DNA of 64,000 nucleotides from an uncultured Verrucomicrobiae bacterium (GTDB lineage: Bacteria > Verrucomicrobiota > Verrucomicrobiia > Chthoniobacterales > UBA10450), in NCBI GenBank assembly GCA_963815455.1, contig CAWFGO010000005.1, positions 64,001 to 128,000 on the forward strand, in the 5' to 3' direction. Position numbers and translations under genes: made by a program. Positions 24,247-42,853 of this stretch are shown piece by piece. Numbering within the stretch: the stretch's first letter is position 1; each line of letters opens with the position of its first letter. A model generated the notes under the pieces. That model saw only the letters and a program-made list of their open reading frames with translations, had not been told where the DNA came from and searched no databases.

Positions 24247-25950
24247 GTGCAGCAAAGCCGCTGGATCATTGCCCCGCCGGAAGAACTTAACGGCGGATCT
24301 ATTTCTTGGAGTGAGATCTGCGGGTCCGATTGCATTGCGCGCCTGCTGATGCGCAGAGGGTTCGCCAGCGCTGAAGAAGTGCAAACATTCCTCGACCCGC
24401 GGTTGAGTTCGCTCAGCGATCCGTTCTTGCTTCCCAACATGAAGGCAGCAGTCTCGCGAATTCTAGATGCGCTGGATCGACGCGAGCGGATCGTGCTTTT
24501 CGGCGATTACGATGTCGATGGTGTGACCTCGGTGGCGCTGCTGGCGGAAATGTTGCGTGCATATGGAAGCGCGCCGGGTTTGTTTTTGCCGTTGCGGATC
24601 GAGGAAGGTTACGGGCTCGGTCGCGAAAGCATCGAGCGCTGTGTCGAACAACACCGGCCCCACCTTCTGATCGCGGTAGACTGCGGGACGTCATCGACCG
24701 AGGAGATTGTCGATCTTAAGAAACGTGGCGTGGACGTGATCGTTCTCGATCATCACGAGCCAAAATCTGCGTTGCCGGACTGCGTTGCGATTGTGAATCC
24801 CAAAATCGATCCGGAATCGCCCTTTCATTATTTTTGCAGCGTTGGGATCGTCTTCAAACTTTGCCACGCCCTGCTCAAAACGCGCCCGGTCGATTTCGAT
24901 CTAAAGTCGAAACTCGATCTGGTCGCGCTCGGTACCGTGGCCGATATCGTTCCGCTGCGCGGCGAGAACCGGGTCTTCGCCAAGCGTGGTGCGGTCGAGA
25001 TTGGGCGATCGGCCAGGCCTGGTTTGAAAAAGTTGATCGAGGTGAGCGGAGTGCGTCCGCCGATTCTGACCGAAGATATCGGCTTCCGTCTCGGGCCGCG
25101 TTTGAACGCATCGGGACGGTTAAGCAACGCGGAGCGATCGCTGCGACTCCTCCTCACAGAGGACGAAGCTGAAGCGTCGGCGATTGCCGAGGCGCTCGAC
25201 AAAGAAAATCGCGAACGTCAGTCCGTCGAAAAAGAAATCTTCCTCGCCGCGGACGAGCAAATCGCGCGCGAATTCGATCCGGTGCGCGACGCGGCGATCG
25301 TGGTCGCGGCGCGCGGCTGGCATCCGGGCGTGTTGGGAATTGTGGCGTCGCGAATTTGCCGCAAATATCATCGGCCTGCGATTGTCATCGGTTTCGAGGA
25401 GAACGGCACAGGGAAGGGGAGTGGCCGGAGTATTGAAGGGCTAAACCTTGTCGAAGCGTTGAACCGTTGCAGCGATACCTTGCAGAAGTACGGCGGCCAT
25501 GAGATGGCGGCTGGCCTAACCGTTCTCGAAAAGGATGTCGATCTTTTCTCGACGACGTTCCGCCGCGCAGCGCGAGAACTTTTGTCCGACGAACATTTGC
25601 AACCGTGTTTGCGTCTGGATCACGAACTGATGTTCTCCGATCTCAATTTCGATCTTCTTCGATGGCACGAGATGCTCCAGCCCTTCGGCAACGGAAACCC
25701 GGCGCCGCTTTTTTTCTCCCGCGCAGTGGAACCGGTTGGATCGCCGCGCCTGGTCAAAGAGAAGCATCTTATTTTGCGGCTGCGCCAGCGCAATCATCAT
25801 CGGCGCGCGGTCTTTTTTGACGGAGCGAGTACGCCGCTGCCACCGGCGCCATGGGATGTTGCGTTTCGGATTCGCGCGGATGAATACCAGGGGGACACTC
25901 TGCTCGGGATACAGATTCAATCTGTGCGTGAAGCGGAGCGAATAGGATGA
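24247..25950 (+). CDS. recJ: Single-stranded-DNA exonuclease RecJ
   Basis: FGDYDVDG, VDCG, LDHH, GTVADIVPL, GSGRS, GGHEMAAG. Confidence 0.96.
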   Translation: MQQSRWIIAPPEELNGGSISWSEICGSDCIARLLMRRGFASAEEVQTFLDPRLSSLSDPFLLPNMKAAVSRILDALDRRERIVLFGDYDVDGVTSVALLAEMLRAYGSAPGLFLPLRIEEGYGLGRESIERCVEQHRPHLLIAVDCGTSSTEEIVDLKKRGVDVIVLDHHEPKSALPDCVAIVNPKIDPESPFHYFCSVGIVFKLCHALLKTRPVDFDLKSKLDLVALGTVADIVPLRGENRVFAKRGAVEIGRSARPGLKKLIEVSGVRPPILTEDIGFRLGPRLNASGRLSNAERSLRLLLTEDEAEASAIAEALDKENRERQSVEKEIFLAADEQIAREFDPVRDAAIVVAARGWHPGVLGIVASRICRKYHRPAIVIGFEENGTGKGSGRSIEGLNLVEALNRCSDTLQKYGGHEMAAGLTVLEKDVDLFSTTFRRAARELLSDEHLQPCLRLDHELMFSDLNFDLLRWHEMLQPFGNGNPAPLFFSRAVEPVGSPRLVKEKHLILRLRQRNHHRRAVFFDGASTPLPPAPWDVAFRIRADEYQGDTLLGIQIQSVREAERIG

Positions 25951-28700
25951 TCGAGAAAGACGCCGAGATCGCGATTTCGCAATCGTTGGACCAACTAGAA
26001 TGGATTCCGCGGCCGAAGCTTCTCGCTTTGCGCCGGCTTGGCATCGAGAGGGTGGAAGATCTACTCACGCATTATCCGCGACGTCACGAAGATCGACATC
26101 AGTTTCCCCATTTTCCGCGCGAGGAGAGCGACACGCCGATTTGTCTCTGCGGTGAAGTGGTCAAAACATCGGTGCGCCGATTTGGCGGCTGGAAAAAAAT
26201 CTTCGAGGCCACACTGGAGGAATCGGGCTCAAACGCGCTGAGCGAGCCGCTGGTTTGCCGGTGGTTCAATTTGCATTATGTGCAAAAAATGATCGCGACG
26301 GGCCAGCAACTCGTCGTGTTCGGGAAGCCGCGCCTGCGGGGAAAACGGATTTGCATGGAGCACCCTGAGTTCGAAGTGATTGAGAACGACGAGGAGATGT
26401 CGATCCATTTTCGGCGAATTACGCCGATTTATCCTGCCACCGAGGGTCTTTCCCAACGCGTGTTGCGCAGCCTGATCCATCGTTTGTTAGACGAGCTTGC
26501 CGACGAACCGTTGGAAACATTGTTGCCGAAGGAACTGGCCGGCGCCGACCGGCGCGCCGCGCTTGGCGCGATTCATTTTCCGGAGAACTGGGAAGCGCAT
26601 CACGCGGCGCGACAGCATCTCGTGCTCTCGGAATTTTTCGCGATGCAAATGTTGATCGCCTCCCGGCGTTCGGAAGCATCAATTCGGGCCGGCGAATCGC
26701 ATTGCGGCACCGGAGCGTTGCTCGAAAAATTTGTGGGTGCGCTCCCATTCGATTTGACCAGCGCGCAGTCGAAAGTGATCGCTGAAATCCGGCGCGATCT
26801 CGCCTCGAGCCATCCGATGAATCGGTTACTGCAGGGCGACGTCGGTTCCGGAAAAACCGTGGTGGCGATCGCGGCGATGCTCCTGGCAATCGAAGCCGGA
26901 TATCAGGCGGCGTTCATGGCGCCGACGCAAATTCTGGCGGAACAACATTACGCCGTGCTCCGCCGCTGGCTTGAACCGCTGGGCATTCGATTGTCGATCC
27001 GCACGGCAGCGCGACAGGAAGACAACGCGCCGCTGCCGTTGTTCGCGCAGGCGCAGAATTTAACGCACGGAAGGATTCTGGGGAGCACAGGCTGCCAGCC
27101 TGTTGCGTCCGGCAGCTTGCCGGACTCTTCTGCGCCCGAGGAAAAAATAGGGAAAATCCTGTCCGGCATGGCCGAACCTATTTACCACCGGCGCAGCCTC
27201 CCTCATTTCGAGCGGCCCTGGGCCAAATACGCAATTACCTTCGCAACACGAAATCGTTGGCGACTGTCGCCAAAAGCGCGTGATGTCGTGCTGGAATCCA
27301 TCATCAACTGGAAGGATAAGCGTTACGAACTCTACGCTGCGTGCGTAATGCCGGATCACGTGCATATGCTGATCGAACCGATGGTCGAGCGGCAGGGCGC
27401 GTCTGGTGACTCGGTCTTTTTTTCCATTTCAAAAATTCTGCACACGATCAAATCGTTTACTGCCAAACAAATCAACAGGACAGAAAGCAGAAGCGGATCG
27501 GTTTGGGAGATAGAATCGTTCGACAGAATGATTCGATCGGAGAGTGATTTGCGGGAAAAATTTCTATATATTACGGGTAACCCTTGGGACGTGGGGGTCG
27601 CCAAACAGGGCGAAGATTACCGATGGGTCTGGTACCCTGGGAGCCGCGACGCCATTCAATTCGCGGCAGGCTGCCGCGAACCACAGGCTGGCAGCCTGTG
27701 CTCCCCGGAGGCGAAGCTCGCTCCCGAGGAGCCTCAAATCATCGTGGGAACGCACGCGCTGCTTTACGACAATGTTTCCTTTTCGAATCTTGGATTGGTG
27801 GTCATTGATGAGCAGCACAAGTTTGGCGTTGCCCAACGCGCTCGCTTAACGGATCGCGAACCGGCGCCGGATGTGCTCGTCATGACAGCGACGCCAATTC
27901 CGCGGACGTTGACCATGACGGTTTACGGCGATCTCGATGTTTCAATCATTGATGAGATGCCGCGCAATCGGGGGAAGATAATCACCGCGGCCCGCGACGA
28001 ATCGAAGCTTGGCGAGGTCCTGGTATTTTTGCGCGGGCAGTTGGAAGCCGGGCGTCAAGCGTACGTGATTTATCCGTTGATCGACGAAAGCGACAAGCTC
28101 GATGCCAAGGCGGCGGCGGCGGAATATGAATTGTGGCTGGAACGTTTGCGCCCATATCAATGCGAGCTGCTGCACGGCCGCATCCCTGCTCCGGAAAAAC
28201 AGGAAATCATGGAACGGTTTCGCCAAGGCCAGACCAGCGTTTTGATCAGCACGACCGTGATCGAGGTCGGGGTCGATGTTCCAAATGCTGCGGTGATGCT
28301 GGTTGAAAACGCGGAACGCTTCGGCTTGGCCCAGCTGCATCAACTCCGTGGGCGGATCGGGCGCGGCGAGCATAAGTCGTATTGCATTTTGTTAACGTCG
28401 GACGACTCGAAGGAGACGGCGGCGAAGCTCGCCGTTCTGGAAAAAACAATCAACGGTTTCGACGTGGCCGAAGCCGATTGGGATTTGCGTGGGCCGGGCG
28501 ATCTGTTAGGCACGGCGCAAAGCGGTCTCCCCGGCCTCAAGATTGGTAATTTAAAGTCGGACGCGCAATTGATGCGCCGCGCGCGAGCAGCGGCGATGTC
28601 GATCTTCCGGGCCGATCCGGGTTTGGAGCTGCCGGAGAATCAACATTTTCGCCGTTTGATTGTCGAAACACAGGGACGAACCTTCTCAAACGTCAGTTGA
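25947..28700 (+). CDS. recG: ATP-dependent DNA helicase RecG carrying an in-frame RAYT transposase insert
   Basis: Wedge domain, LQGDVGSGKT, APTQILAEQH, [insert], VGTHAL, DEQHKFG, MTATPIPRT, QLHQLRGRIGR, LRGPGD. Confidence 0.95.
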   Translation: MIEKDAEIAISQSLDQLEWIPRPKLLALRRLGIERVEDLLTHYPRRHEDRHQFPHFPREESDTPICLCGEVVKTSVRRFGGWKKIFEATLEESGSNALSEPLVCRWFNLHYVQKMIATGQQLVVFGKPRLRGKRICMEHPEFEVIENDEEMSIHFRRITPIYPATEGLSQRVLRSLIHRLLDELADEPLETLLPKELAGADRRAALGAIHFPENWEAHHAARQHLVLSEFFAMQMLIASRRSEASIRAGESHCGTGALLEKFVGALPFDLTSAQSKVIAEIRRDLASSHPMNRLLQGDVGSGKTVVAIAAMLLAIEAGYQAAFMAPTQILAEQHYAVLRRWLEPLGIRLSIRTAARQEDNAPLPLFAQAQNLTHGRILGSTGCQPVASGSLPDSSAPEEKIGKILSGMAEPIYHRRSLPHFERPWAKYAITFATRNRWRLSPKARDVVLESIINWKDKRYELYAACVMPDHVHMLIEPMVERQGASGDSVFFSISKILHTIKSFTAKQINRTESRSGSVWEIESFDRMIRSESDLREKFLYITGNPWDVGVAKQGEDYRWVWYPGSRDAIQFAAGCREPQAGSLCSPEAKLAPEEPQIIVGTHALLYDNVSFSNLGLVVIDEQHKFGVAQRARLTDREPAPDVLVMTATPIPRTLTMTVYGDLDVSIIDEMPRNRGKIITAARDESKLGEVLVFLRGQLEAGRQAYVIYPLIDESDKLDAKAAAAEYELWLERLRPYQCELLHGRIPAPEKQEIMERFRQGQTSVLISTTVIEVGVDVPNAAVMLVENAERFGLAQLHQLRGRIGRGEHKSYCILLTSDDSKETAAKLAVLEKTINGFDVAEADWDLRGPGDLLGTAQSGLPGLKIGNLKSDAQLMRRARAAAMSIFRADPGLELPENQHFRRLIVETQGRTFSNVS
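27080..27706 (+). mobile_element. REP-flanked RAYT (HUH/Y1, IS200/IS605-related) element inserted in frame in recG
   Basis: Perfect 24-bp terminal IR GGGGAGCACAGGCTGCCAGCCTGT / ACAGGCTGGCAGCCTGTGCTCCCC plus inner hairpins; domain from ATG 27168 with RRSLPH, YAITF, VMPDHVH, IKSFTA, W..ESFDRMIR, YITGNP; no stop codon. Confidence 0.92.
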
Positions 28701-30232
28701 TGAAAAATCTCGCCAAATTCTTACTATTGGTGCTGCTGGTTAGCGCAGCAATCTCGTTTCTCTATGATTACCGGCTCAAGCATGGGAATCTGAAGCCGCT
28801 CCCAAGCCGAACACCGGAAAAATATACGCTCGCAAACGAGCCTAACATCAAATCGCAGCAGGTCGCCTCTCTGGAAGCGCTGAACAGAGAGCGGCGGGCA
28901 CTGGTAAACAGCGTGATCCCGTCCGTCGTTGCGGTGAAGACCTCGAAGAAAATCGAGATCCGCCGGCAATATGGGCTCGATCCATTTCAATTTTTCTTTC
29001 GCAATCCGAGCCAGTTCCGCAGTCCGCGGGATCAGGCGCTGGTACAAAACTCTCTTGGCTCTGGAGTCATCGTGACAAACGAGGGACACATCATCACCAA
29101 CAACCACGTTGTCGATCAAGTGGACGATATCGAAGTGCAGTTAAGCGATGGACGCACCACCAAAGCGCGGGTTGTCGGCGCGGATGCGCAGCTCGATCTG
29201 GCTGTCCTTAAGATCGACGAACCGGGGGTCAAGCCGCTCAAGCTGGCCGATTCCGATGCGGTACAGGTAGGCGATTTTGTTTTGGCGATCGGAAATCCTT
29301 TTGGGTTCGAAGAAACAGTGACGGACGGAATCATTAGCTCGAAGGGACGCCCGAATCGCAGCGACGCGTTTAGCGATTTGCTGCAAACGGATGCAGCCAT
29401 CAATCCGGGCAACAGCGGGGGCCCGTTGATCAACCTTAGCGGTGAAGTCGTTGGGATTAACACCGCGATCATTTCACGCAGTGGCAGTTCTTCCGGAATT
29501 GGCTTCGCTATTCCGTCCAACACGGTGCGCAACGCACTCGAGAGCCTGCTGAAGCAAGGCCGGATCATACGCGGTTATCTCGGGATTCAGACGCGAGCGT
29601 TGCAGCCGCCAGGTCAACGAGCGCCGGAAACCGAAGGCGTTACGGTAGATGACGTCATCGCAGGATCGCCTGCGGCCGAGGCCCGCTTGCAAAAGGGAGA
29701 CGTGATTCGCAAGTTCGCTGGGCATGATGTGAAAAATTTTCCGGCGCTGCGCAGTCTCGTCGCTCAGGCTGAGCTGAACAAAAAAGTCGAGCTGGAAATT
29801 GTTCGCGATGGGAAACCGATGAAGGTCACGACGGAAATCAGGGAGCAACCGATGGACTTTCAAACCGCGCAGTCGCCGCAAGGAAACCAGCCCCAGCCGC
29901 AAGTGCCGGCCGAACCGGACGCGGGCGATCAGGGCGAACCCGACGCGGGCAACCCGCTCGGAGCAATTCACGTTGAGGCCCTAACGTCTGAGATGATGCG
30001 CCAGCTCGATCTGCCAAATAATGCGCATGGCGTGGTTATTACGAATGTCGATCCTAACGGCGGAGCCGCGGAGCTGCAGAAAGGCGATGTCATTGAAGAA
30101 ATTAATCAGCAACCGATCGGATCGCTCTCAGATTACGACAGGATCGCCGGGGCGCTGGATCCGACTAAACCACATGTCTTGTCGGTGTGTCGGCACCGGA
30201 CGCGTTCGTTCGTTGTGCTGCGGCCGCGATGA
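28700..30232 (+). CDS. DegP/HtrA (Do) serine protease with two PDZ domains
   Basis: LGSGVI, TNNHVV, DLAVLK, TDAAINPGNSGGPL, PDZ domains. Confidence 0.93.
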   Translation: MKNLAKFLLLVLLVSAAISFLYDYRLKHGNLKPLPSRTPEKYTLANEPNIKSQQVASLEALNRERRALVNSVIPSVVAVKTSKKIEIRRQYGLDPFQFFFRNPSQFRSPRDQALVQNSLGSGVIVTNEGHIITNNHVVDQVDDIEVQLSDGRTTKARVVGADAQLDLAVLKIDEPGVKPLKLADSDAVQVGDFVLAIGNPFGFEETVTDGIISSKGRPNRSDAFSDLLQTDAAINPGNSGGPLINLSGEVVGINTAIISRSGSSSGIGFAIPSNTVRNALESLLKQGRIIRGYLGIQTRALQPPGQRAPETEGVTVDDVIAGSPAAEARLQKGDVIRKFAGHDVKNFPALRSLVAQAELNKKVELEIVRDGKPMKVTTEIREQPMDFQTAQSPQGNQPQPQVPAEPDAGDQGEPDAGNPLGAIHVEALTSEMMRQLDLPNNAHGVVITNVDPNGGAAELQKGDVIEEINQQPIGSLSDYDRIAGALDPTKPHVLSVCRHRTRSFVVLRPR

Positions 30233-37161: not shown

Positions 37162-37706
37162 TGTAGCCGGCATCGGTGATGCCGGTTTCTTAGATGCCCA
37201 AACATTTATCCCGGCTCGAGCGTGTGTGGGTCGAGTCACCGATTTATTTCATCACGACCTGCACGTTCAAACGCAGGTCAATTCTAGCATCCGAGAACAT
37301 CGCCAACATTCTTCGCGAGGAATGGCAGAATGCGCACCATCGACATGGATGGGTCATTGGGCGGTAAGTAATCATGCCCGATCACGTGCATTTCTTCTGC
37401 TCTGCCGAATTCAATGCGACGAAATTGTCGAAATTTCTGCAGTCATGGAAACAATGGACGAGTAAACGTATCAGCCGTGAGGTTGGCCTTTTGGGGAAAA
37501 TTTGGCAGGCAGAGTTCTTCGATCACGTCTTGCGATCAGGCGAAAGCTACAGTCAAAAATGGGACTACGTGAGAGAGAATCCAAAGCGCGCCGGATTAGT
37601 TGCAAACAGAGATGATTGGTTGTGGCAGGGCGAAATCGAGTCACTCATCTTGTAGTTTGCGCCAAACAGCGGAATTCAAGATCCGGGATCACCGATCCCG
37701 GCTACA
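37162..37706 (+). mobile_element. REP-RAYT-REP element 2
   Basis: TGTAGCCGGCATCGGTGATGCCGG (37162-85) and CCGGGATCACCGATCCCGGCTACA (37683-706) flank a RAYT gene. Confidence 0.88.
37194..37655 (+). pseudogene. RAYT transposase with an in-frame TAA at 37365
   Basis: MPKHLSRL..IYFITTCT..GR*VIMPDHVHF..WQAEFFDHVLR..YVRENP. Confidence 0.88.
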
Positions 37707-41134: not shown

Positions 41135-42728
41135 TAAAAGCAGATATGACGTCGTCATTCTGGGCGCGGGGCATAACGGTCTCGTGGCTGCGAGTTATCT
41201 CGGCCGCGCGGGACTGAGTGTGCTGCTTCTGGAAAAAAACGATTACATCGGCGGTGCGACGACTTCACAGAAGGTTTTTCCCGATTATGACGCGCGGCTT
41301 TCGCGCTACTCGTATCTGGTCAGTTTGTTTCCGGAGAAAATTATTCGTGATCTCGGATTGAATCTCGAGCTCCGGCGGCGCGCGATCGGGTCGTTTACGC
41401 CCTACCTCAAAGACGGCCGCCACGATGGATTGCTGCTGAGCAATGTCGATGAAGAGGCGAGCCGTCGATCGATTGTCGATCTTACTGGAAGCGATGCCGA
41501 GTACGAACAGATGAAGAAGTTTTACAATTTGTCGCGGGTGTTTGCCGAACATTCCTGGGATTCCATGCTCGAGCCGCTCGTGGCCAAGGAGGAGTTTCAG
41601 CGCCGGTTCGATGTCGATCCTGTTTCACGCGAGGCGTGGCGCAGTCTGGCCGAGGAACCGCTCGGACGCGCAATCGAGCGTCATTTGAAAAACGATCTGG
41701 TGCGCGGCCTCGTCCTGACCGATGCCAAGATCGGCGTCTTTACCCATCCCCACGATCCGTCGCTCCTGCAGAATCGCTGTTTTCTTTATCACTTGATCGG
41801 TAACAAGACCGGCGAATGGAAGGTGCCGGTAGGCGGGATGGGTGCGGTGGCGTTTGAACTGGAACAGGCCGCGCGAAAAGCCGGCGCCGAATTCGTCACC
41901 AATGTCGATCTTCGCGCTGTCGATGGGAGAGGGGAGAACAAGACCGTTGAGTTTGAAATCAATGAGGAACGGCAGAGGGTCGAGGCGCGATTTCTTTTGG
42001 TCAACTTTGGCCGGAATGTCCTGGGAAAATTAACCGGCCAATTATTTCAGCCCGAGCGCACGGACGAAGGCTCCGTGTTCAAAATTAACATGCTGCTTCG
42101 GCGATTACCCAAGTTGAAGGCGAAGAATCATCCGGCGACCGAGGCGTGGTGCGGAACGTTTCATAGTGACGAAGGCTACGAAGCGATGAAAGTGAGCTAC
42201 GATCAGGCCTCGAAGGGGCAATTACCGGACAAGACACCGTGCGAGGTGTATTGCCACACCCTGACCGACGACAGCATTCTCGCTCCGGAGCTGCGGGAAC
42301 AAGGTTTTCATACGATGACACTTTTCGGGCTCGACGCGCCCTACTCGCTATTTGCGCGTGACAACAAAACGATGCGAGCGGATGCCGAGAAAAAATTTCT
42401 CGCGAGCATGAATCAGTGGCTGGAAGAACCGCTCGAAGCATGCCTCGCCGTTGGACGCAATGGCGAACCCTGCATTGAGAGCAAGAGCCCGCTGGATATC
42501 GAGAACGCGCTGGGGATGTATCACGGCAATATTTTTCACGACGCCCCGACGTGGCCATTCGCGATCGAAGAGGCACAAGCCGGCACCTGGGGCGTCGAAA
42601 CCGAATTCGAAAATGTGTTTCTATGCGGCTCGAGCGCGCAGCGCGGCGGCGCGGTCAGCGGCATTCCCGGGCACAATGCAGCGATGAAAGTGCTGAAAGC
42701 GTTGGTTCCGGGGAGCACAGGCTGCTAG
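41106..42728 (+). CDS. Phytoene desaturase-like FAD-dependent oxidoreductase
   Basis: GAGHNGLVAA, GGMG, GNIFH, GGAVSGIPGHNAA; start is one of four ATGs inside the hexamer array. Confidence 0.88.
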   Translation: MSMSMSMSTSKSRYDVVILGAGHNGLVAASYLGRAGLSVLLLEKNDYIGGATTSQKVFPDYDARLSRYSYLVSLFPEKIIRDLGLNLELRRRAIGSFTPYLKDGRHDGLLLSNVDEEASRRSIVDLTGSDAEYEQMKKFYNLSRVFAEHSWDSMLEPLVAKEEFQRRFDVDPVSREAWRSLAEEPLGRAIERHLKNDLVRGLVLTDAKIGVFTHPHDPSLLQNRCFLYHLIGNKTGEWKVPVGGMGAVAFELEQAARKAGAEFVTNVDLRAVDGRGENKTVEFEINEERQRVEARFLLVNFGRNVLGKLTGQLFQPERTDEGSVFKINMLLRRLPKLKAKNHPATEAWCGTFHSDEGYEAMKVSYDQASKGQLPDKTPCEVYCHTLTDDSILAPELREQGFHTMTLFGLDAPYSLFARDNKTMRADAEKKFLASMNQWLEEPLEACLAVGRNGEPCIESKSPLDIENALGMYHGNIFHDAPTWPFAIEEAQAGTWGVETEFENVFLCGSSAQRGGAVSGIPGHNAAMKVLKALVPGSTGC

Positions 42729-42835
42729 CCTGTTCGTCTCGGCAGCTTGCCGAGACGTTTCCGAATTGTTGTTCGCTTTGCGAAAGTGTTGCCGGCAAGC
42801 TGCCGGCAACTGCAGGCTAGCAGCCTGCGCTCCCC
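42710..42835. mobile_element. Non-autonomous (MITE/REPIN) copy of the recG-inserted element
   Basis: GGGGAGCACAGGCTGCTAGCCTGT + GTCTCGGCAGCTTGCCGAGAC ... GTTGCCGGCAAGCTGCCGGCAAC + GCAGGCTAGCAGCCTGCGCTCCCC. Confidence 0.9.
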
Positions 42836-42853
42836 AGATCTGAGATGTCGAGC

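Follow-up and report, generated by a model that had tools for sequence, protein, structure and literature searches.

In-frame RAYT elements in RecG and other housekeeping proteins of Chthoniobacterales: probable mobile transposons read as unspliced protein domains

Within a 64,000-nucleotide window of DNA from an uncultured Verrucomicrobiae bacterium (assembly GCA_963815455.1, contig CAWFGO010000005.1, positions 64,001 to 128,000; all positions below are window coordinates unless a contig is named), the gene encoding the helicase RecG (25947..28700, + strand) was found to hold a complete REP-associated tyrosine transposase (RAYT) between two inverted repetitive extragenic palindromes (REPs), an arrangement termed a REPtron. 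Gene and element are read as a single stop-free frame of 917 codons. The element lies in frame, has been gained, swapped and lost recurrently at this RecG loop, is under purifying selection together with its host and occupies other genes. Judging from the sequences, we put at about 0.68 the probability that it is an active, mobile REPtron that persists in housekeeping genes by being translated, without splicing, as one of the host protein's domains. The notion of a 'stealth' transposon tolerated as an in-frame domain, advanced in an earlier sequence-only reading of the window, is thereby well supported, as such elements recur, are exchanged and lost at the loop and sit in unrelated housekeeping enzymes.

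The in-frame element in recG

The RecG part of the protein scored 676.2 against the TIGR00643 cut-off of 659.4 and also exceeded the cut-off of NF008168; the wedge domain, SF2 motifs, C-terminal domain and purifying selection were all found. recG is single in the source genome (G000, approximately 90% complete), with one gene over the cut-off and the next-best match below it. The insertion point lies between motifs Ia and Ib. The N-terminal part (25947..27047, +) comprises the wedge domain and motifs I and Ia as far as a PLF motif, position 27047 being the left end of the joint seen in empty alleles, and the C-terminal part (27738..28700, +) runs from motif Ib to the end of the gene. Between them are a translated variable left flank (27048..27076, +), absent from the empty allele of a relative approximately 94% identical, a left REP arm (27077..27125, +), the RAYT core (27180..27638, +; residues 412-564), a right, inverted REP arm (27660..27709, - strand) and a variable right flank (27710..27737, +). 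The left arm consists of TCT, a GGGGAG foot and two hairpins (approximately 27086-27103 and 27107-27125). As single-stranded DNA (ssDNA) each arm is predicted to form two hairpins (folding z -2.4 left, -4.1 right), and both are translated as putative disordered linkers.

That a full RAYT sits in recG, in the same frame and without a stop, had been claimed from the sequence alone and was borne out by the 917-codon open reading frame (ORF), in which the HUH motif (H471-V-H473, 27357-27365) and the catalytic tyrosine Y541 (27567-27569) are both present. The Y1_Tnp domain PF01797 was recognised inside the recG frame at 26.6 bits (cut-off 23). The RAYT model NF047646 matched residues 421-560 over its positions 5-145 of 146, with 72.2-76.3 bits, slightly below its cut-off of 80, and a profile of the clade matched the E. 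coli TnpA-REP structure 4er8 (E 1.7e-4). Y1 domain, HUH motif, catalytic tyrosine and RAYT-type sequence together place the core among the RAYT/TnpA-REP proteins. Its position between a REP and an inverted REP, with a GGAG foot 5' of the hairpin (GTAG in genomes G005, G018 and G020), is that of a REPtron. A classical REPtron carries a stand-alone extragenic gene, whereas this RAYT lies in frame in recG and has no stop of its own.

The perfect 24-bp inverted repeat (27080-27103 / 27683-27706) and the two hairpins per arm were likewise as first described. The limits originally given to the element, 27080..27706, hold for that repeat and fall short of the element's extent: the inverted match widens to 46 nt at 85% identity (27077-27122 / 27664-27709), the unit spans about 27077-27709, and the reading frame through it starts at 27081. 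The block replaced relative to empty alleles is wider again, at about 27048-27737. No target duplication of 2-9 nt was found abutting the element.

None of 36 inserts has a stop in the frame, and 32 of them lack an in-frame ATG in the stretch that separates the left REP from the core (GTG and TTG starts lie outside this count). Translation as a fusion is the simplest reading of these sequences. An alignment-based AF2 model (43 sequences; mean pLDDT 76, pTM 0.63) folded RecG on both sides of the insert and the RAYT as a domain of its own; residues 357-425 and 567-591, which hold the two REP arms, were disordered, and the best Foldseek match was RecG 1gm5. The model thus depicts two domains, each folding by itself, with disordered REP-encoded stretches as the linkers between them. 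A single-sequence AlphaFold model (pLDDT 33.6) was unusable.

The insert might instead be removed after transcription or translation, by RNA splicing, ribosome bypass or proteolytic release, so that RecG is restored and a RAYT set free. The terminal inverted repeats could pair the ends in RNA and the disordered linkers might be protease targets. We nevertheless regard such hidden removal as very improbable. The 917-residue frame gave no Pfam match to an intein family, with neither a Hint domain nor terminal splice residues, and splice-type residues were not conserved at the junctions of 13 aligned inserts. No group I or II intron ribozyme family was matched in Rfam at E<=1, the sole Rfam hit at the insert being a sub-threshold Yersinia sRNA on the opposite strand. 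Across both arms the frame is strictly conserved, as expected of read-through, and in the AF2 model the helicase folds around the insert. The first description of the element as free of intein, group I intron and target duplication therefore stood.

Exchange at the RecG loop and occupation of other genes

Empty alleles of recG join 27047 to 27738 in frame, skipping 690 nt and carrying 21 other letters instead. The contigs with this joint are 94-95% identical to the recG of the window and came from three of four runs of one study; they belong to a related soil organism rather than demonstrably to the same strain. REP remains were retained in other empty alleles, as a whole REPIN (a pair of inverted REPs) in G012, a right arm in G032 and a fragment in G013. 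Possible left-arm scars in G001 and in the empty allele of the ~94% identical relative were too short to count. Among loci L032, L037, L040, L043-L046, L180, L181 and L184, an empty loop of 'SFLPL' type, 18-19 residues long, occurs in several separate RecG clades. Other empty alleles retain the 'PLPLF' motif of filled ones, and local allele exchange or repeated precise repair is possible.

A RecG tree was built without the insert from 47 rows (13 filled, 34 empty) that were sampled independently of state, the loci being a subset of 60 relatives; L036 (no motif Ib in frame) and L041 (<500 residues) were left out. The filled state required 10 changes on this tree, 9 of them forced by starred branches, and was no more clustered than in shuffles (81/500). 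Such counts cannot tell gain from loss; the swaps, as far as sequence comparison goes, do show gains. All of the nearest RecG relatives (G001, G013, G010 and the ~94% identical organism) are without a RAYT, which makes gain in this lineage the simpler reading, not a proven one.

The clearest picture came from four pairs of closely related recG genes with very different inserts, the synonymous divergence (dS) of host and insert being 0.12 and 1.71, 0.33 and 1.64, 0.49 and 2.19, and 0.66 and 1.72, respectively; in every pair the REP type differed on one arm or both. For these and the correlation analyses 43 of 57 RecG inserts were kept, those with incomplete flanks being dropped. Over the 43 alleles the identities of the two RecG halves correlated at 0.91, and those of insert and host at 0.50-0.52. 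In the first 90-nt window beside the junction the host flanks of the four swapped pairs remained sister-like (0.84-0.97 identity), which confines the exchange to the loop. One chimeric allele (L053:3-2960) combines type-A and extra REPIN sequence on the left with a type-B arm on the right; its recG is 95-96% identical to that of L054, whose core differs.

Monophyly of the RecG-site cores (18 against 22 other rows) was rejected in an approximately unbiased (AU) test on a careful 40-row tree (p-AU 2e-9), a tree of 127 cores having been computed only quickly, and type-B RecG cores grouped with stand-alone copies. The RAYT alignment likewise rejected the host tree (delta logL 455). As two host control blocks of equal length were rejected too (59, 71), weight is placed on the effect size and on pairwise dS. 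The single fixed locus, vertical inheritance and immobile RAYT of a classical REPtron are not what is seen here.

These patterns also bear on a homing-like spread, in which an empty recG would be nicked by the HUH domain and then receive a copy of the insert through gene conversion, with a filled allele as donor, after the manner of inteins and introns that have homing endonucleases. The fixed positions within conserved genes, a pattern of invasion, decay and loss, and the tendency of most RecG-site cores to cluster by site more than shuffles would all suit this. On the other hand, no donor-like co-conversion tract was present in the 90-nt windows of the four swapped pairs (tracts shorter than about 90 nt, and the true donors, lie beyond the reach of this comparison), and RAYT lineages cross between genes. 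Furthermore, the RAYTs treated in the available text of PMC8266576 and PMC3333891 recognise REP hairpins and cut at a dinucleotide, with no long target. Homing is accordingly rated as improbable.

In a whole-protein search full-length RecG::RAYT matches were present in 12 of the 60 relatives (9/36 of the same family and 3/24 of other families; three of the 60 are flagged as unpublished and count in the denominator only), the same-genus genome G001 having an empty recG. When 121 genomes of the order were searched with a profile of 15 cores, 27 of them gave 40 matches in all, and 38 of these matches lay within frames at least 762 residues long. Against a collection of species genomes the profile gave 519 stretches; among the best 80 nearly all were from Verrucomicrobiota, many of them named Chthoniobacterales or Ca. 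Udaeobacter. Outside the order, a search of 250 genomes across the phylum returned two strong matches beyond the source genome, which indicates that the clade is concentrated in one order. A recG::RAYT close to the verrucomicrobial ones was seen in a record labelled Solirubrobacterales (L104), either a binning error or a transfer.

The set of 127 distinct cores, biased towards recG by the query and leaving out two clade-2 CarB cores, was hosted by RecG (57), AlaRS (32, at two sites), MetH (18, at two sites), ThrRS (8), CarB (4) and a glycyl-radical, pyruvate formate-lyase (PFL)-like enzyme (1); two more lay in frameshifted recG or metH and five were stand-alone. Host sites were assigned by flanking motifs, with eight proteins checked against Pfam. 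The source genome alone has fusions in recG, alaS and metH, plus one in carB with a RAYT of a different clade, each apparently single-copy. This carB RAYT (G000:C1:1469339-1473118, L014), as well as one in G027:C3 (L156), belongs to a second clade, whose members are longer and have a REP type of their own; in further genomes this region of carB is occupied by clade-1 RAYTs. Single alaS or metH genes can carry two RAYT domains, one per site (L122:2747-7366, L115, L079 and L087/L159; frames of 1212-1663 residues). Stand-alone members also translate their arms, REP-type peptides being found on both sides in 17 of 33 parsable short homologues, some of which are fusion fragments. Four stand-alone members (L163, L164, L165 and L129) form whole cistrons in pilus- or secretion-like operons, the gene type being judged by eye; three of them share one intergenic position, and the two REP arms fall within the ORF.

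Comparable in-frame cases are thus plentiful, in 12 of the 60 relatives and in AlaRS, MetH, CarB, ThrRS and PFL-like hosts. A misassembly or a one-off decaying insertion, against which the sequence-only reading had cautioned along with a non-functional RecG, is scarcely conceivable. In its favour, no contig in the four runs spans the source organism's own junctions; the insert core was nearly without cover in those runs, a lack that is given no weight, the bridging joint being the only evidence taken from them. Against it stand 57 distinct in-frame RecG inserts from independent assemblies, and the intact frame and catalytic residues of this copy; at the comparative level RecG did not appear non-functional.

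A domesticated fusion resembling a relaxase-helicase, in which RecG would unwind DNA and the RAYT would nick REP cruciforms to the benefit of the host, had been the other proposal made from the sequence. It fared poorly and we consider it very doubtful. Purifying selection on both parts would be consistent with it, as would the number of exact REP copies in the source genome, which is 29 for the recG type compared with 5 for metH, 5 for carB and 1 for alaS (left-arm counts only); a RecG tether may help the RAYT to reach ssDNA. However, the insert is absent from the same-genus genome and from the ~94% relative, and unrelated RAYTs replace it at the recG loop. The same clade resides in enzymes that do not act on DNA, namely AlaRS, ThrRS, MetH, CarB and the PFL-like enzyme. 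Moreover, the tyrosine is lost in 5 of the 57 RecG inserts, and the disordered linkers are long and of variable length.

Integrity, REP copy number and candidate mechanism

Both the HUH motif and the tyrosine were intact in 120 of the 127 cores. Comparison of dN/dS between insert and host, as the sequence-only reading had proposed, gave a median omega of 0.13 for the insert (range 0.06-0.51) and 0.09 for RecG, purifying in both cases, over the 10 pairs, out of 903, in which insert dS was not saturated. Selection in frame could partly reflect a need to fold and is, alone, no proof of catalysis.

In the source genome the recG-type arm occurs 74 times at up to two mismatches, as 33 inverted pairs and 8 singles. 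The pairs are the recG element itself and 32 RAYT-less REPINs of 101-150 bp, so that cognate REPINs are spread through the genome. One of the latter lies in the window at 42707..42838 (folding z -10). The copy at 42710 does read TAG, as had been noted; the CAG found in recG is the family consensus (CAG in 48/74 arms, TAG in 11/74) and therefore represents no special adaptation. TCT or TCC precedes the foot in 59/74 arms as part of a conserved end (TCY 5' of GGGGAG). CT or CC stands directly before the foot in 64/74, which fits, without testing it, the cleavage at C|T published for TnpA-REP, an enzyme described as nicking single-stranded REP DNA and catalysing strand transfer (PMC3333891; PMC8266576, available text). 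Three type-A REPINs are read in frame in this genome, one in metH and two in an error-prone polymerase gene. The latter is of the DnaE2 type (NF004225; G000:C2:503631-506831, L203), its REPINs lying at C2:503930 and C2:506294. The metH gene (C3:169636-174156) has a full in-frame RAYT at site A and the RAYT-less type-A REPIN at site B.

More informative than selection is REP copy number, which follows the type of the embedded RAYT. The three genomes with a type-A recG element contain 50, 66 and 37 type-A copies, compared with at most 14 in 34 others, and the type-A copies listed for G005 have the GTAG foot of that genome's own recG arms. Type-B copies number 56, 29 and 16 in G040, G020 and G018, whose recG element is of type B, against 1 in the source genome. 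Among the 16 Y1 hits of the source genome the recG insert is the only RAYT with the expanded REP on both sides, and the same applies among 4, 5, 4 and 5 NF047646 hits in G005, G017, G040 and G020. An exception to the correlation is G054, whose 22 type-B copies are perhaps served by an alaS insert with one-mismatch arms. The genomes in this census are related and hence no p-value is given. Taken at the level of sequence, the RAYT embedded in RecG is probably kept intact and active.

We envisage that a recJ-recG-htrA unit would express the full 917-residue RecG::RAYT. recJ (24247..25950, +) has a stop that overlaps the recG start, and the predicted start of a Do/HtrA-family protease gene (28697..30232, +) overlaps the recG stop, so that a frame-breaking insert would risk polarity. 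No sigma-70-like promoter was found in 26800-28000, by a weak test. The tethered HUH domain would then nick single-stranded REP DNA beside the GGAG or GTAG foot and perform strand transfer, thereby amplifying cognate REPINs in trans. More rarely, it may move the whole unit, probably as ssDNA, as the published biochemistry of the family suggests. Intragenic copies would persist only in frame and in a tolerant loop. Resident REP arms and REPINs may act as landing pads for later elements, giving rise to fixed hot spots. This step is supported by metH site B, which holds only a REPIN in the source genome and a whole element in others, and by the extra REPIN within the left linker of several inserts. 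Deletion from REP to REP would leave REPIN-only, scarred or empty alleles.

Several observations weigh against an active, mobile element. The tyrosine losses in RecG inserts noted above count here too, and the window's copy has an internal ATG at 27168, from which a start could only yield the RAYT joined to the C-terminal half of RecG. RAYT activity would be deduced from a correlation of REP copies among non-independent genomes; one of these, G023, has 14 type-A and 15 type-B copies and no cognate RAYT identified, and another, G027, has a type-B-variant insert with variant arms and only 6 exact copies. The 40 rows of the AU test were picked after the first tree had been seen. Many inserts are co-inherited with their host, insert dS being close to host dS, and GC content at third codon positions (GC3) of the insert tracks that of the host, which together indicate long residence. 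No near-identical RAYT duplicates were found among the 16 Y1 hits of the source genome, so movement must be slow. The swaps might also come from host recombination between REP arms.

Alternatively, the inserts may be old and mostly immobile passengers, descended vertically from a few ancient insertions and repeatedly deleted. The apparent swaps would then be due to ordinary recombination of the host between REP arms, following DNA uptake, and the RAYT would amplify REPINs at most and never move itself, as in the classical view of RAYTs. Co-inherited pairs with matching dS, insert GC3 that follows host GC3, the large RecG-only cluster of type-A inserts and the scars in G012, G013 and G032 all agree with this, as does the statement, in the available text of PMC8266576 and 10.1101/2021.07.10.451892, that there is no evidence for RAYTs being mobile in their own right. 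Yet RAYT lineages that are related to one another sit in different genes as well as between genes, which requires non-homologous movement at least several times, and a swap is seen at a host dS of 0.12, with the filled state scattered on the host tree. We therefore consider immobile passengers unlikely, although less so than the other alternatives, and retain a mobile, translated REPtron as the favoured reading.

Relation to known systems and further observations

In its parts, the element is a REPtron. It shares with RAYTs and their REPINs or bacterial interspersed mosaic elements (BIMEs) the Y1 domain with HUH motif and tyrosine, a GGAG or GTAG foot followed by a hairpin, an inverted REP pair round the gene and cognate REPINs whose population across the genome follows the RAYT. 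Classical RAYTs, according to the available parts of PMC8266576, PMC3333891, 10.1101/2021.07.10.451892 and PMC5581495, are extragenic, stand-alone and single-copy, at a fixed locus and with no evidence of mobility of their own. In contrast, the unit described here would be a translated domain within housekeeping proteins; both REP arms are coding, four fusions occur in one genome, different elements replace one another at a site, and different genes share them. The available text of PMC5581495 makes no mention of RAYT fusions.

Palindromes read in frame in conserved genes have precedents in the intragenic REPs of Opitutus terrae and the Rickettsia palindromic elements, often in DNA-repair genes including dnaE2 (PMC3733652, available text); the in-frame REPINs of the error-prone polymerase and metH genes of the source genome may be compared with these. 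Those repeats are non-autonomous and add 20-82 residues, whereas here a whole transposase is embedded. IStrons, which combine a group I intron with an IS200/IS605-type transposon, similarly render a single-strand transposon harmless inside host genes (PMC4227781; 10.1101/2023.11.20.567912; both as far as the available text goes). They leave the mRNA by splicing, whereas the RecG insert has no intron family match and keeps the host frame. With IS200/IS605 elements themselves (PMC8266576, available text) the insert has in common Y1 HUH chemistry, hairpin ends and the lack of a target duplication. It differs in matching the RAYT model at 76.3 bits and the IS200 model NF033573 at 21.5 bits (cut-off 55), in its symmetrical inverted REP ends and in the absence of near-identical copies among the 16 Y1 hits.

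Inteins with homing endonucleases place a nuclease domain in conserved proteins at fixed sites, are patchily spread and pass through a cycle of invasion, decay and loss. The RecG insert resembles them in its fixed sites in conserved proteins, its patchy distribution and its nuclease domain, predicted to be translated with the host. Unlike them, it has no splicing domain, an HUH rather than a LAGLIDADG or HNH nuclease, ends formed by DNA hairpins and no long co-conversion tracts in the 90-nt windows compared.

A claim to a new lifestyle class is plausible. More specifically, and as a tentative proposal to which we give somewhat less than even odds, the elements may form a class apart, that of 'domain-resident' HUH transposons. 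In these the hairpin ends would also serve as flexible linkers in the protein, so that the entire element would be an unspliced domain, with promoter, start and stop borrowed from essential genes. Such transposons would be active while tethered, drive REPIN expansion and re-invade fixed tolerant loops by REP-to-REP cassette exchange. Our literature search, which took in few subscription journals and had supplements outside its scope (those of PMC3733652 and PMC6006769 could list cases), yielded no description of whole RAYTs in frame within host genes. In PMC6006769, to judge from its available text, proteins longer than expected were taken to be fusions or annotation errors and set aside, and filtering of this kind may have removed in-frame RAYT fusions from surveys.

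The prevailing view of RAYTs is that of domesticated transposases that do not jump, and the mechanism by which REPs spread is still open. Were such a domain-resident class borne out, it would add to introns and inteins a third means of concealment within genes and would directly attest that RAYTs move themselves. The loci described here provide a natural experiment, a single site offering swapped alleles as well as empty and scarred ones, and REP families tracking a single embedded RAYT. They allow direct tests, on defined donor and target DNA, of RAYT mobility and of REPIN amplification. They would also offer a splicing-free route by which a nuclease domain of 200 residues enters essential proteins, a source of domain accretion, and the inserts map protein loops that tolerate large insertions. 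Chthoniobacterales are the hosts, and some of the records bear the name Ca. Udaeobacter.

Further palindromic repeats and RAYTs were observed in the source genome. The top 20-mers of other abundant palindromic families reach 36 and 26 copies. No Y1 hit among the 16 is flanked by the more frequent of the two; the other borders a stand-alone RAYT at C3:534002. Within the window, a stand-alone RAYT of another clade occupies 37194-37652 and contains one internal TAA stop just before its HUH motif.

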